Source: Eledone cirrhosa
Taxonomy: Eukaryota
NCBI GenBank assembly: GCA_964016885.1
Contig: OZ024741.1
Location: 212,164,001-212,228,000 of the forward strand
Direction of reading: 5' to 3'
Length of the DNA: 64,000 nucleotides
Shown here: positions 1,733-6,394 of the stretch, piece by piece
Position numbering within the stretch: position 1 is the stretch's first letter
Layout of the letters: each line of letters begins with the position of its first letter
The notes under the pieces: generated by a model
What the model was told of the DNA's origin: nothing
The model's database searches: none
Seen by the model: only the letters and a program-made list of their open reading frames with translations
Position numbers and translations under genes: made by a program

Positions 1733-2210
1733 TTCCAACAGAGCCTTATAAAAATATGTATTTGAATTTCATATTTCTAAAGAAATACGGTACGTTTATA
1801 AATACAGTATTTCTTTAGAAATACGAATTCCTGTATACAGCTCTGTTCGAGGCTAAATTCTAATTCTATTATATTATAATTTGAGCCAACTTATACAGCT
1901 CCATATGCAAACGAGATTAATCAGATCATTTACACGGACGAAAAAACTATATATTTTCGCCTGTTTTCAAAGTCGGGCAGTTACACGCGCAGGAGAGATC
2001 GTCCTGACGAGAACCCATTTGAGTTTCAAATGCATCGACGATTGTCCCCCTTGCTTCTGCCGGGCACCGCCAGGTGGCGTTAGCTGCTAGTGTTTAATTC
2101 ATAGGCATGGCTTTCTAAATGTTTATTTATAAACACACGATATTTCTTTAGAAATACGAAATTCAAATACATATTTGTATACAGCTATGTTTGTAGTTAA
2201 AATCTAATTA
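1733..2210 (+). mobile_element. ~330 bp HHR-containing unit (family B) with terminal direct repeat and 5' inverted segment
   Basis: TATTTCTTTAGAAATACGAA at 1808 and 2141; 1733-1790 is inverted relative to 1805-1861; homologous to 5292-5647. Confidence 0.75.
1998..2042 (+). ncRNA. Hammerhead ribozyme, G12 mutated (probably inactive)
   Basis: ATCGTC-CTGACGA-GAAC..GTTT-CAAA-TGCA-TC-GACGAT: perfect stem I and palindromic stem III, but GAAA reads CAAA. Confidence 0.7.
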
Positions 2211-2218
2211 TATATATA

Positions 2219-2616
2219 TTAATTAAACGTACGGTATATTACCAAATATACTATACATACATTCATGTATACATCACTATTTCAGAGCACCAATCCTAAT
2301 TCTTAATTTTTGCTTGACCGGCAATTGCTCTGTATAATCAGTTCCTGATTATTACTGGAATTCTATAAGAATTCAGCCTCTCTAATTTTTGGCAGAGGTG
2401 GGAGTGTATGTTACTCTGAGGAACACCAACAGTGTGAAACAGAATATGTCAGCTTCTCTCTCTTCCTTTGCCGAAAAAAGTAGTAAGTGACATAGTCACT
2501 ACCTTAAAATGATAGCGCAAGGTCTTCAAAATGTTTTTAATTAAACATACGGTATATTACCAAATACACTATATATACATTCATGTATACATCGGTATTT
2601 CAGAGCACTAATCCTT
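2219..2616 (+). mobile_element. ~318 bp HHR-containing unit with ~75 bp terminal direct repeat (family C)
   Basis: AATTAAAC..CGGTATATTACCAAA..TTTCAGAGCAC at about 2221 and 2539; related fragment at 12804-12908. Confidence 0.75.
2414..2452 (+). ncRNA. Hammerhead ribozyme (type I)
   Basis: CT-CTGAGGA-ACAC caaca GTGT-GAAA-CA gaata TG-TC-AG: intact core with GUC site; proximal stem I is short. Confidence 0.7.
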
Positions 2617-2647
2617 ATATATATATATATATATATATATATATATA

Positions 2648-2800
2648 TAGGAACGAGTAGGACCCCGACGGCTGAGCTCAAGCCGTTTCGACGGCTAATT
2701 CTGGGTCCTACTCGTTCCTATTACCCACTCTACTACCCTAAGTATTGAGTACTTTGGTGCGTTATGGTCCATCTGGTTCCTTACCACCTTTCCTTCGTTA
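2648..2800. mobile_element. Short foldback element (family D) in (TA)n carrying the 3' half of an HHR
   Basis: Homologous to 8832-9023 and 48922-49304. Minus strand has GAAACGGC-TTGAGCTCA-GCCGTC. Confidence 0.75.
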
Positions 2801-3144
2801 TATATATATATATATATATGAGGCAATTGTGCAAACCCCGAAATCACTGCCTCAAATCCCGTCAGAAAATACATCCTCACTGCACTCACATTTTTTGAAA
2901 AATTATTCAACTAATATTTGTCAAGTTTATGTACACTCATACTTAAAAGGCCCACAATATCTCTCGCTCTTTCCTTATCTAGATAGCTATATATATATAT
3001 ATATATATATATATATATATATATATATATATATATATATATATATATATATATATATACATATATATATATATATATAAATCTATCTATCGATATATAT
3101 GTATGTGTATATATATATATATATATATATATATATATATATAT

Positions 3145-3625
3145 CGTGCATATTATTTTATTCTTTGGGATGACCTCCCCTTTCCGCTTGATGGCAGTGT
3201 GATATTTCTCATTGTGTGACTGCTGGAATTTCAAATTTGTCGGTCATTCTTGCACGGAGGGGTACCATCTCGGAACATTAATATCGGTAAGGTTTTTTTT
3301 TATATCGATATTTGACAGGCATCCACTGATGATTTATAAGAGCACACCTACATATCTTCCTACGGACTATGTGTAGGCTTCTACATAACCTGGACATTAT
3401 TTTCCCAATTTGTAGAAAACTTATAATGAAACGATCGTTTGGAAAGAGAGATGTATTTTAATTATGTCTCATATCAAATAATACAACTGGTTATCCAAAA
3501 AATACGTATAGTTAGCACCCCAAACGTATAATTGGGATTATACTAAGGTATATCCTAATGTTTGTTGAGTGAGACGGAAGCCGGTCGTAGTATTGCTTAA
3601 AGCTGTCTCTGTTAATGTATTAAAT
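3145..3625 (+). mobile_element. ~480 bp element (family E) between (TA)n tracts
   Basis: Collinear with 8020-8497 (GATGACCTCCCTTT ... CCTAATGTTTGTTGAGTGAGA). Confidence 0.8.
3322..3443 (+). ncRNA. Hammerhead ribozyme with 95-nt expanded stem II
   Basis: TCCA-CTGATGA-[TTATAAG...CTTATAA enclosing two hairpins]-GAAA-CGATCG-TT-TGGA. Confidence 0.75.
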
Positions 3626-3833
3626 ATATATATATATATATATATATATATATATATATATATATATATATATATATATATATATATATATATAGAGAGA
3701 GAGAGAGAGAGAGAGAGAGAGATATATAGGACACGAATGGAGCTGTGGTTACTGTAAACAAAGTTTAATATATAGATATATATGTACATATATAAATCTA
3801 TCTATCGATAAAGATAAATATATATATATATAT

Positions 3834-4172
3834 ATGTAGATAAATCTACCAAAAGTTTACGGTAGTGTCCAATCCGTATGAAGAACTCAATGTAATCCGG
3901 ATATCATGGAAAGAAGAGATGCATTCAAAAATCACTTTCGGTGAAAGATAAACGGAATACAGAGTCAAGATAAAATATAAAAAAAATAATGAATAAAACA
4001 AAGAAACAGTTCCTTATATTAAACAAAAAAAGTTCATTATTTAACGATCGTTTCTAGGACATATATGTGTTAGAATTGGCATGCATATTCAAAAGATCTA
4101 TGTACAAAATTATACAAACTATCAAGGAGAATATACATACCATCACATATATATGCTGTCTTCAGAAATAAT
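3834..4172 (-). mobile_element. Family F element fragment in (TA)n, containing a long-stem-II HHR (4033-4172)
   Basis: Near-identical to 52484-52821. Minus strand ATTATTT-CTGAAGA...GAAA-CGATCG-TT-AAATAAT. Confidence 0.8.
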
Positions 4173-4712
4173 CATATATATATATATATATATATATATA
4201 TATATATATATATATATATATATATATATATACATACATCTATATATATATATACATCTATATATTTGTATGTACATACTGAGAGCTATTAACAGAAAAA
4301 GAGTACCACACATATATATATACAAACACACACATAAGTCCATGGCAATATACAGGATTCGATTATATAAACTGATAATTAAATAAAATGGAAGGAAGAT
4401 TCTCCAGTCCTATATCGGATGACTGTTAAGTAAAATTCTCGAGAGAATGAGTTAAAATGGCGCTGTGTTGCAACCATAAATTTGTCTAAGTGAAGAATAT
4501 ATATAAAATAAATAAGTAAATAAATAAATATAGAAAATTATATAAGAAATAAACAAATAATAAAATGTCATGATAGAAGAGAACAAATTGTTACATATAT
4601 ATATATATATATATATATATATATATATATATATGTCGTATATATATATATATATATATATATATATATATATATATATATATATATATATATATATAAT
4701 ATATATATATAT

Positions 4713-5228
4713 ATTTCGTTTCTGAATTTGTTTAGCAAGATTCTATAGCTGAACATATGTGTTGAAACCGATATTGTTATGCTTTGGGAAGGTCATGTTG
4801 CCAATAAGAAACACACGCACCAGTTGCTTTCACTCAAATTTATTATAAAATATATTTATATATTTAAGAATTTATAAATTTCCGGTTGGTTGGTTCCACA
4901 ACCGGACGGTTGTTCATATATTGTCAAGGTTCTTTCGTCACACATTCTGTGACCTCTTCAGTAACTGGAGATTCTTTCCTTTGTTTTGTTTTGTTTTGTT
5001 TTGCACAAAAACAAAGAAAAGAATCCCTAGTCACTGAAGAGGTCACATAATATGTGATGAAAGAACTTTGACAATATATGACCAACCGTCCGGTTGCGGA
5101 ACCAATCAACCAACCGGAAATTTATAAATTCTTAAATTTATAAATTTAATTTATAATAAATTGGAGTGTAACAACTGGTGCGTGTGTTTCTTATTGGCAA
5201 CATGACCCTCCAAAAGCATAACAATATA
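4713..5228. mobile_element. Head-to-head inverted pLTR pair (family A-related), ~225 bp arms, one HHR-like motif per arm
   Basis: 4771-4990 is the reverse complement of about 5005-5228. Plus-arm HHR GTCA-CTGAAGA-..TCACATA/TATGTGA..-GAAA-GAAC-TT-TGAC at 5030-5072. Confidence 0.85.
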
Positions 5229-5291
5229 TATATATATATGTATATATATATATATATATACGCACATACGTATACATGCATATATATATAT

Positions 5292-5647
5292 CAAGCTGTG
5301 CTTGAAGCGAACTCTTATTTCTTTTCTATTATAAGTTGAGCTAACTTATGCAGCTTCGTATGCAAATGAGATTAATCACCTCATTTACACAGAAGAGATA
5401 ACTATATATTCTCGGCTGTCTTCCAGTCCAGCACTCGCAATCGGTGGGAGGGATCGGCCTGACGAAGGCCAGTTAAGCCTGAAATGCATAGACGGCTGTC
5501 TCCCTTGCTTCTGCTGGACATCACCAGAGCCCCCCCCCCCCCGGTGTTTGCATAGCTAGGGCTTCCTAAAACCGTATTCCATTGGAGATACGAAATTTAT
5601 ATACATATTGTATAAAGCTATGCTTGAAGCGAAATCTTATTTCTTTT
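5292..5647 (+). mobile_element. Family B unit (~322 bp monomer plus short direct repeat) in (TA)n
   Basis: AAGCT(G/A)TGCTTGAAGCGAA(C/A)TCTTATTTCTTTT at 5293 and 5615. Confidence 0.8.
5453..5495 (+). ncRNA. Minimal hammerhead ribozyme, intact core
   Basis: TCGGC-CTGACGA-AGGC cagttaa GCCT-GAAA-TGCA-TA-GACGG. Confidence 0.8.
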
Positions 5648-5671
5648 ATATATATGTATATATATATATAT

Positions 5672-6394
5672 ATATCACAGGTATATATTAAGTTAGGAAC
5701 TCAAAATAGTCTCTTTCAACAAAATAGCTCTAAGAAAGAGATATTTCAGAGCCGTATATTATAATAGAATATAAAAGAAAAACGAACACAGATATATACA
5801 TATATGTGTTCAAATCGTTACGATTTGAATACATATATGTATATATCTGTGTTCGTTTTTCTTTTATATTGTATTATAATATACGGCTCTGAAATATCTC
5901 TTTCTTAGAGCTATTTTGGTGTAAAAGACTATTTTGAGTTCCTAACTCAATATATACCTGTGATATATTCGGCTCCGTTAATTTGTTGAGCTATTTAAAA
6001 TGTCGAATAAACCTCCTGTCTGCTATTTTTAGTGTAAGTTTGTGAGATGCGCTATGATGTCATGTGCGCTAAAATGTTTATATATAACACACTATTCAGT
6101 TTCATAATATACTTAGAATTGTCTAGGATACTAATTCATCACACACTGATGAGCTTGAATTGGTAATTCTATTCACAATTAACTTTGCGAAACAACAACA
6201 AGTTGTCTGGGTGATGGGTAGTTACCACAATTCCGGATTGTATTTATTTTCTTAATTCTTTCTTAAATTGAAACAAGCAAACCCTATCGTCTATAGTTAG
6301 TATTCTTTTCACCTTAGCGAATACAGTCCCTTACGATTTGAACACTTATATGTATATATCTGTGTTCGTTTTTCTTTTATATTCTATTATAATA
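5672..6394 (+). mobile_element. ~513 bp HHR unit (family G) with 3' partial tandem repeat and ~145 bp 5' inverted copy
   Basis: Palindrome centred at about 5819 (5672-5967); TTACGATTTGAA..TGTGTTCGTTTTTCTTTTATATT at 5818 and 6331. Confidence 0.85.
6137..6216 (+). ncRNA. Hammerhead ribozyme (type I)
   Basis: CATCACACA-CTGATGA-GC...GC-GAAA-CAAC aacaa GTTG-TC-TGGGTGATG (8/9 stem I, GUC site). Confidence 0.85.

Follow-up and report, generated by a model that had tools for sequence, protein, structure and literature searches.

Non-coding hammerhead units with a Penelope-type footprint in Eledone cirrhosa, probably copied from unit-length RNA into TA microsatellites

A 64,000-nucleotide (nt) stretch of the Eledone cirrhosa genome (GenBank assembly GCA_964016885.1, contig OZ024741.1, positions 212,164,001 to 212,228,000 of the forward strand; hereafter the window) carries, at positions 1733 to 6394, four short units that were noted earlier as retrozyme-like. 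We followed their families through the 3.0 Gb host genome, which contains many TA microsatellites. From the insertion footprints, the balance of evidence tips slightly towards reading the units as non-coding hammerhead mini-elements of Penelope type, whose template, RNA of unit length and probably circular, was copied into cut TA microsatellites. The class to which they belong (retrozymes without long terminal repeats, non-LTR), its link to Penelope elements, and the idea of a circular template are already published hypotheses; the data below narrow the question of the template and do not settle it.

The copies in the window, A1, B1, A2, and C1 (Table 1), represent dispersed families whose majority units measure 343 nt (A), 318 nt (B), and 507 nt (C), and a separate 322-nt subfamily, A2, that is 77.6% identical to A. 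Searching the genome returned 2576, 2127, 3041, and 2107 candidates at first look, and 40 per search were scored; exact matches to 19-nt markers numbered 471 (A), 1223 (B), and 963 (C) genome-wide, and reversed controls gave 0. The GC content of the units is 0.34–0.39. Their type I hammerhead layout was identified by its consensus and compared with the description in PMC4209133. All 11 core positions and the cut nucleotide were intact in 45/97 (A), 57/85 (B), and 79/112 (C) complete motifs. When the commonest types of A and A2 were compared (9 and 23 motifs), both sides were found to have changed in three of the four pairs of stem II and in one pair of stem I, which argues that the predicted hammerhead fold has been kept in the source elements. 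Folded as circles, the family profiles lie well below shuffled sequences (z −8.0, −8.0, and −5.1), and the window copies less far below (z −2.0 to −3.9); such a predicted fold would fit a circle and a tandem alike. Pieces from inside the units have also grown into local minisatellites (from stem II of the C hammerhead, about 30 nt; from elsewhere in the units, 91 nt of C and 28 nt of A; loci L108:439-1131, L295:1567-1844, and L466:940-1084).

Because full-unit queries favor long copies, insertions were sampled by position, by taking the first distinct 19-nt marker matches met along contig C1 (67 A, 65 B, and 85 C). In this set, the 3′ end lay at one of the two AU-rich sites of each family, S1 or S2, 26–85 nt apart, in 55/67 (A), 57/65 (B), and 81/85 (C) insertions, whereas the 5′ ends were variable and continuous. 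The differing start offsets reported in the earlier note thus hold for the 5′ ends and fail for the 3′ ends, and its suggestion of free circular permutation is refuted, as 193/217 3′ ends fall at two fixed sites. A cluster of 5′ ends at the 5′ side of the hammerhead, suspected in early searches, is absent from the position-sampled data. A microsatellite adjoined the 3′ end in 41/67 (A), 52/65 (B), and 73/85 (C) insertions; since the flanks are microsatellites, target-site duplications, which in retrozymes exceed 4 bp where present, are unreadable. An inverted arm met the 5′ end head-to-head in 27/67 (A), 35/65 (B), and 48/85 (C) insertions (110/217 in all), and in pairs with both outer ends classed, each arm used a different site in 26/26 (B) and 34/34 (C) cases (p 2e-18). 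By eye, the A2 pairs look discordant as well. Arms ending at S1 and S2 did not differ in length (p 0.26 and 0.45). As a separate observation, A and B, otherwise unrelated, share a 31-nt stretch (m281-311 in A, m228-258 in B; 81% match) that forms two consecutive hairpins just upstream of S1 and is a candidate enzyme-binding signal.

Passages of Craig et al. (2021; PMC8557442) give partial tandems, an inverted 5′ copy, and a tail at one end as Penelope marks, and Frangieh et al. (2024; PMC11167929) describe two reverse transcriptase (RT) start sites and AT-rich targets. The units share all of these with endonuclease-bearing Penelope-like elements as portrayed there, together with 5′ truncation and a hammerhead upstream of internal start sites. 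The units differ in having no open reading frame (ORF) and in their tail, 26–85 nt as against 30–40; moreover, their AU-rich start sites might base-pair with the target, but those of the anole element are described as not homologous to the cut DNA (PMC11167929). Mobilization of the hammerhead units by a Penelope-type enzyme is, on these footprints, very probable.

An autonomous Penelope-like element at the left edge of the window leaves the same footprint. Its 3′ ends lie at u791-798 or u841-856, in (TA)n, its tandems span 1.27–2.2 units, and 7/7 readable head-to-head pairs are discordant, with one arm per site. The unit is 4117 nt long and has one hammerhead-like motif and an ORF that counts 1210 codons from its first ATG and includes a long stretch rich in asparagine. 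A search with its 496-residue RT-endonuclease part (44,552 candidates) gave 86 scored matches, all 86 of them 100% identical and 23 lying in frames of at least 1205 codons. We take its endonuclease motif to be GIY-YIG; the RVT_1 match in the protein is weak and below the cut-off. Its linker, Cx4CxxC, agrees with the motif that PMC8557442 gives for Neptune/Nematis. The element thus appears extremely young and intact and is a likely active enzyme source. It shows the footprint and not the parentage of the units, because families A, B, and C have no real DNA match to it and are older. Its protein was matched at 29/359 loci, and the four that were compared by coordinates were neighbors in the same TA tract. 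A further copy of this young family lies at L091:7574-9684, and a full unit in L237.

The forward arms had medians of 0.80 (A), 0.85 (B), and 0.82 (C) units and maxima of 1.68, 1.53, and 1.57; 21/67, 25/65, and 29/85 reached one unit. The earlier note had described copies of 1.1–1.25 units that went slightly more than once around their template, which is right for the four window copies and not for the families, whose median is about 0.8: arms of 1.08–1.27 units (13 A, 10 B, and 12 C; 35/217) are an ordinary part of a continuum. A longer linear parent was rejected, as no abutting 5′ flank is held in common: none was shared among 40 (A), 30 (B), and 37 (C) non-inverted copies, and no copy continues into an ORF. 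Abutting 3′ flanks were common to 5, 4, and 7 pairs among 67, 65, and 85 flanks, and the one pair read was another repeat. The retrozyme-like, reverse-transcribed nature of the units is thereby supported, and the sampled copies do not extend into a longer linear element.

It is highly improbable that long copies were later collapsed by recombination between direct repeats, or that the units arose when solitary Penelope terminal repeats were duplicated locally. Under collapse, the length cap would say nothing of the template, because long copies would be made freely and shortened later; in its favor, the families are old (arm–arm divergence medians of 5–12%), and the very young autonomous element retains tandems of 1.5–2.2 units. 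Yet the older halves are not shorter, the shares of at least one unit in the age halves being 12/29 vs 9/30, 17/31 vs 8/31, and 13/41 vs 16/41 (a weak test). Neither collapse nor local duplication is helped by the fact that no copy runs into an ORF or a shared 5′ flank, and the fixed 3′ sites and inverted arms require retrotransposition.

In nucleotides, arm lengths differ between families (Kolmogorov–Smirnov p 9e-6 for B vs C and 5e-6 for A vs C); in units they do not (p 0.65 and 0.82). Truncations on the second pass exceeded expectation at matched positions (85 vs 42.8; rate ratio 3.0, z 7.7), and the ratio, 1.7 within the start region, climbed to 3.5 at +46..120 and then to 5.4 and 10 towards the second hammerhead. 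Loci met twice were removed before counting (17, 1, and 8 in three of the sets); for the comparison of laps, removal was by sequence and left 109 (A), 107 (B), and 143 (C) insertions. Two laps of one arm shared non-majority alleles 102, 79, and 206 times, as opposed to 41, 30, and 67 expected (A, B, and C). Divergence was 11.7, 6.7, and 5.4% between laps, 12.6, 6.5, and 4.5% between arms, and 14.6, 9.5, and 8.3% between loci. Because laps share alleles and diverge like arm pairs, they were near-identical at insertion although the sources differed. Given Penelope-type mobilization, these tests lead us to favor, with moderate confidence, a circular over a linear template, as the earlier note had proposed, although linear tandem RNA fits too.

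Passage through the predicted cut site is seamless. Since the RT must cross the cut for anything over about 0.45 unit, the template would have been uncut or religated there. Indels within 4 nt of the cut occurred at 0.011, 0.011, and 0.002 per site and elsewhere at 0.010, 0.012, and 0.008, so that no junction scar was seen in this weak test of 71–76 crossings each. The absence of a scar, with indels near the cut as frequent as elsewhere, speaks against a self-cut linear monomer that is held closed by the hammerhead stems and whose nick the RT jumps once and fails to jump a second time. Such a nicked monomer, which we consider improbable, would nonetheless account for the slower second lap, the barrier at the second cut site, and the identity of laps, as well as for a mild excess of first-pass stops just 3′ of the cut (0.37–0.57 per 100 nt).

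Several points weigh against a circle copied by a Penelope-type enzyme, and some are what a linear template would give. The second cut site was passed by only 6/23 arms, compared with 187/235 on the first pass (p 3e-7), and such a near-wall is expected if the RNA is a linear tandem whose upstream hammerhead has cut. In this alternative, a few multimeric masters would be transcribed into linear tandems and mobilized in the same Penelope-type way with no circle, the RNA often being cut at the upstream hammerhead (or started from an internal promoter nearby) and left uncut at the downstream one. Long B arms indeed stop at m152-186, with the cut at m153 (m154 was used in the truncation-profile counts). 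Subfamily A2, whose minimal stem III is predicted to cut poorly, gets past the second cut more often, reaching 1.57–1.95 units in 4 of its 30 best-scoring copies. Two-hammerhead insertions exist in A (8/109) and C (5/143), in sets partly enriched for long copies, and the longest copy (L162) has two hammerheads in 2.13 units; in B, after end trimming, 0/107 insertions carry two complete hammerheads. The part of PMC11167929 on the anole element describes hammerhead cutting as dispensable and uncut RNA as the main substrate in vitro. Young tandem masters would likewise yield near-identical laps, and gene conversion could add to the sharing between arms. The raw test of lap polarity is significant in A (264 same vs 170 opposite), and p rises to 0.13 only after post hoc exclusion of positions at the start-site edges. 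Family A pairs are discordant in only 12/20 cases (p 0.5), A being the oldest family, with blurred ends, and A1 has both arms at the downstream start site. No driver element was found for A, B, and C, and comparison with the neighboring autonomous family, the one compared in full, gave only AT-rich scraps of at most 36 bits.

On the other side, the increase in truncation begins before the second hammerhead is reached, and a linear tandem would not lead one to expect that B and C lack fixed differences between 5′ and 3′ laps (p 0.12 and 0.87). If the lineage were purely linear, nothing in it would hold the two laps together as subfamilies diverge by 3–22%, and a search with a 1.84-unit query yielded no long array among the 25 loci read, the best being the 2.13-unit copy. 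We regard the linear tandem, with its upstream cut, as unlikely, though the least so of the alternatives.

If the template is a circle, the cycle might run as follows. A rare two-hammerhead copy would be transcribed, cut itself twice, and be ligated. A Penelope-type RT-endonuclease would bind the hairpin-rich region 3′ of the hammerhead, nick (TA)n, and start priming at one of the AU-rich sites S1 and S2; roughly half the time, the two target strands would prime on the same source RNA, one per site. Stops of the RT would be infrequent on the first lap and about threefold more frequent when it re-reads RNA already copied, leaving copies of 0.2–1.6 units. More tentatively, and with somewhat less than even confidence, we propose that a telomerase-like Penelope enzyme copies a small circular RNA with a ribozyme, starting on each strand of a single cut, and stalls on lapping its own complementary DNA (cDNA), the strength of the ribozyme setting how far the second lap reaches.

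[quoted passage not shown] For vertebrate retrozymes, the work of Li, Clavereau and Pollet (2026; bioRxiv 10.64898/2026.07.22.740005) argues for a Penelope origin, links 24/57 Xenopus families by sequence to a Penelope terminal repeat, and reports that only 1/9 dimers cleaves. As in the animal non-LTR retrozymes of PMC7229834 and the bioRxiv paper, the units here are a few hundred nt long and non-coding, have one type I hammerhead, a GC content under 50%, and predicted strong self-pairing, and coexist with Penelope-like elements, the likely mobilizers according to both papers. Unlike the tandem arrays described for retrozymes, they are dispersed insertions, mostly of sub-unit length to 1.6 units, and, unlike the 24 Xenopus families, no link in sequence between them and the terminal repeat of a Penelope element was found. 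The (TA)n targets, the inverted arms, and the double, fixed 3′ ends were measured here; in the main texts of the open literature, we found no arm-pair, lap, or length statistics for retrozymes. The units also recall non-autonomous Chlamys elements such as MRC1 (PMC8557442), which are described as non-coding, with pseudo-LTRs and head-to-tail insertions; most of those have no hammerhead, and their 3′ ends are generally similar to an autonomous family, whereas the units here carry hammerheads and a partner was not found.

According to the relevant parts of PMC7229834, PMC4209133, PMC8557442, and bioRxiv 10.64898/2026.07.22.740005, the mobilizing enzyme of animal retrozymes and the circular origin of Penelope tandems are open questions. 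One start site per arm, unit-scaled lengths, and a second-pass slowdown are countable footprints that any model has to fit, and the families offer small, defined templates for a bench test. If the idea of a lapping enzyme is true, the genome itself would directly attest the circular-template model for retrozymes as well as Penelope tandems, and would supply a young, intact enzyme of its own for a ready in vitro system.

Within the window, unit lengths and identities were obtained by alignment to the family majority profiles (Table 1). The lengths of 318, 322, and 513 nt given in the earlier note stand, and the 333 nt given for A1 does not (family unit, 343 nt); its finding of one hammerhead motif per unit and a terminal partial repeat was borne out in all four copies, with the core of A1 broken. 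Both inverted arms and the subfamily status of A2 had been missed. Direct repeats have periods of 318 (82 nt, 91%), 513 (66 nt, 95%), and 322, and that of A1 is weaker (74% across about 95 nt). The A1 motif was found by the relaxed scan only, with one mismatch in the GAAA block, and is predicted to be inactive in this copy; the family A core is complete, as are those of the other families. B1, A2, and C1 retain the core, with some mismatches in the stems. The B1 motif was identified by eye and by pattern match. A passage in PMC4209133 has hammerheads with a short palindromic helix III acting as dimers; by prediction, A and A2 would require dimers, and B and C would not. Because none of the four copies holds two hammerheads, none could release a monomer. 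They are decayed passengers, old insertions. No frame of 120 codons occurs at 1733–6394, and none of the four units has an RT plus GIY-YIG endonuclease ORF. A loose hammerhead-core pattern gave 35 overlapping matches in the window as against 6.7 ± 4.8 in shuffles. Rfam gave zero matches at the gathering score and no hammerhead family among 95 weak hits; the sub-threshold matches were hairpin-driven microRNA hits and were discarded.

Table 1. Hammerhead units and neighboring Penelope-like element in the window
Feature	Position	Strand	Description
A1 inverted arm	1714..1804	-	0.27 unit; head-to-head with forward arm; 89.1% to family A profile, m292-40
A1 forward arm	1795..2221	+	1.28 units of 343-nt unit; 88.6% to profile; 3′ end at downstream start site
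A1 type I hammerhead motif	2004..2036	+	stem/loop III palindromic, 4 nt; lacks one conserved G of the core
B1, family B	2219..2618	+	1.26 units of 318-nt unit; 94.5% to profile; abuts A1, runs into (TA)17
B1 type I hammerhead motif	2416..2450	+	core intact; stems I and III with one change each vs family; predicted cut after 2450
A2 copy, subfamily A2	5280..5651	+	1.16 units of 322-nt unit; 92.5% to profile
A2 type I hammerhead motif	5459..5490	+	passes strict scan; core intact; part of stem I mismatched here
C1 inverted arm	5670..5818	-	family C, 0.29 unit, 149 nt, 96%; end at downstream start site S2
C1 forward arm	5818..6396	+	1.13 units of 507-nt unit (513 here); 93.1%; ends at upstream site S1 in (TA)43
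C1 type I hammerhead motif	6146..6207	+	passes strict scan; long stem II, 4-bp stem III; predicted cut after 6207
Autonomous Penelope-like element, forward arm	184..1021	+	endonuclease end, 3′ region; hammerhead-like motif 773-815; ends in (TA)n
Autonomous Penelope-like element, inverted arm	183 leftwards, out of window	-	head-to-head with 184..1021

Other parts of the window hold related material. A short family B fragment lies at 12803–12908 (82% to B1), and directly after B1, at 2650–2720 between TA runs, a short GC-rich inverted repeat is visible by eye that is possibly the remnant of a small DNA transposon. The head-to-head pair at 4770–5224 has ends resembling the start of the Penelope ORF, a tail on one arm only, and a hammerhead-like core with an atypical cut triplet on both arms; a fragment of a related Penelope endonuclease end lies on the minus strand at 60531–60679. 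Between TA runs at 6713–7835 are about 1.5 copies of a 745-nt unit, with parts of a hammerhead core near 7340–7372 in a non-type-I order. A further hammerhead family at 9074–9413 forms an inverted pair with the motif on both arms, and this insertion is probably young because the 168-nt pair is perfect. Two motifs related to that family, with different stem II sequences, occur on the minus strand at 39874–39923 and 59083–59128.

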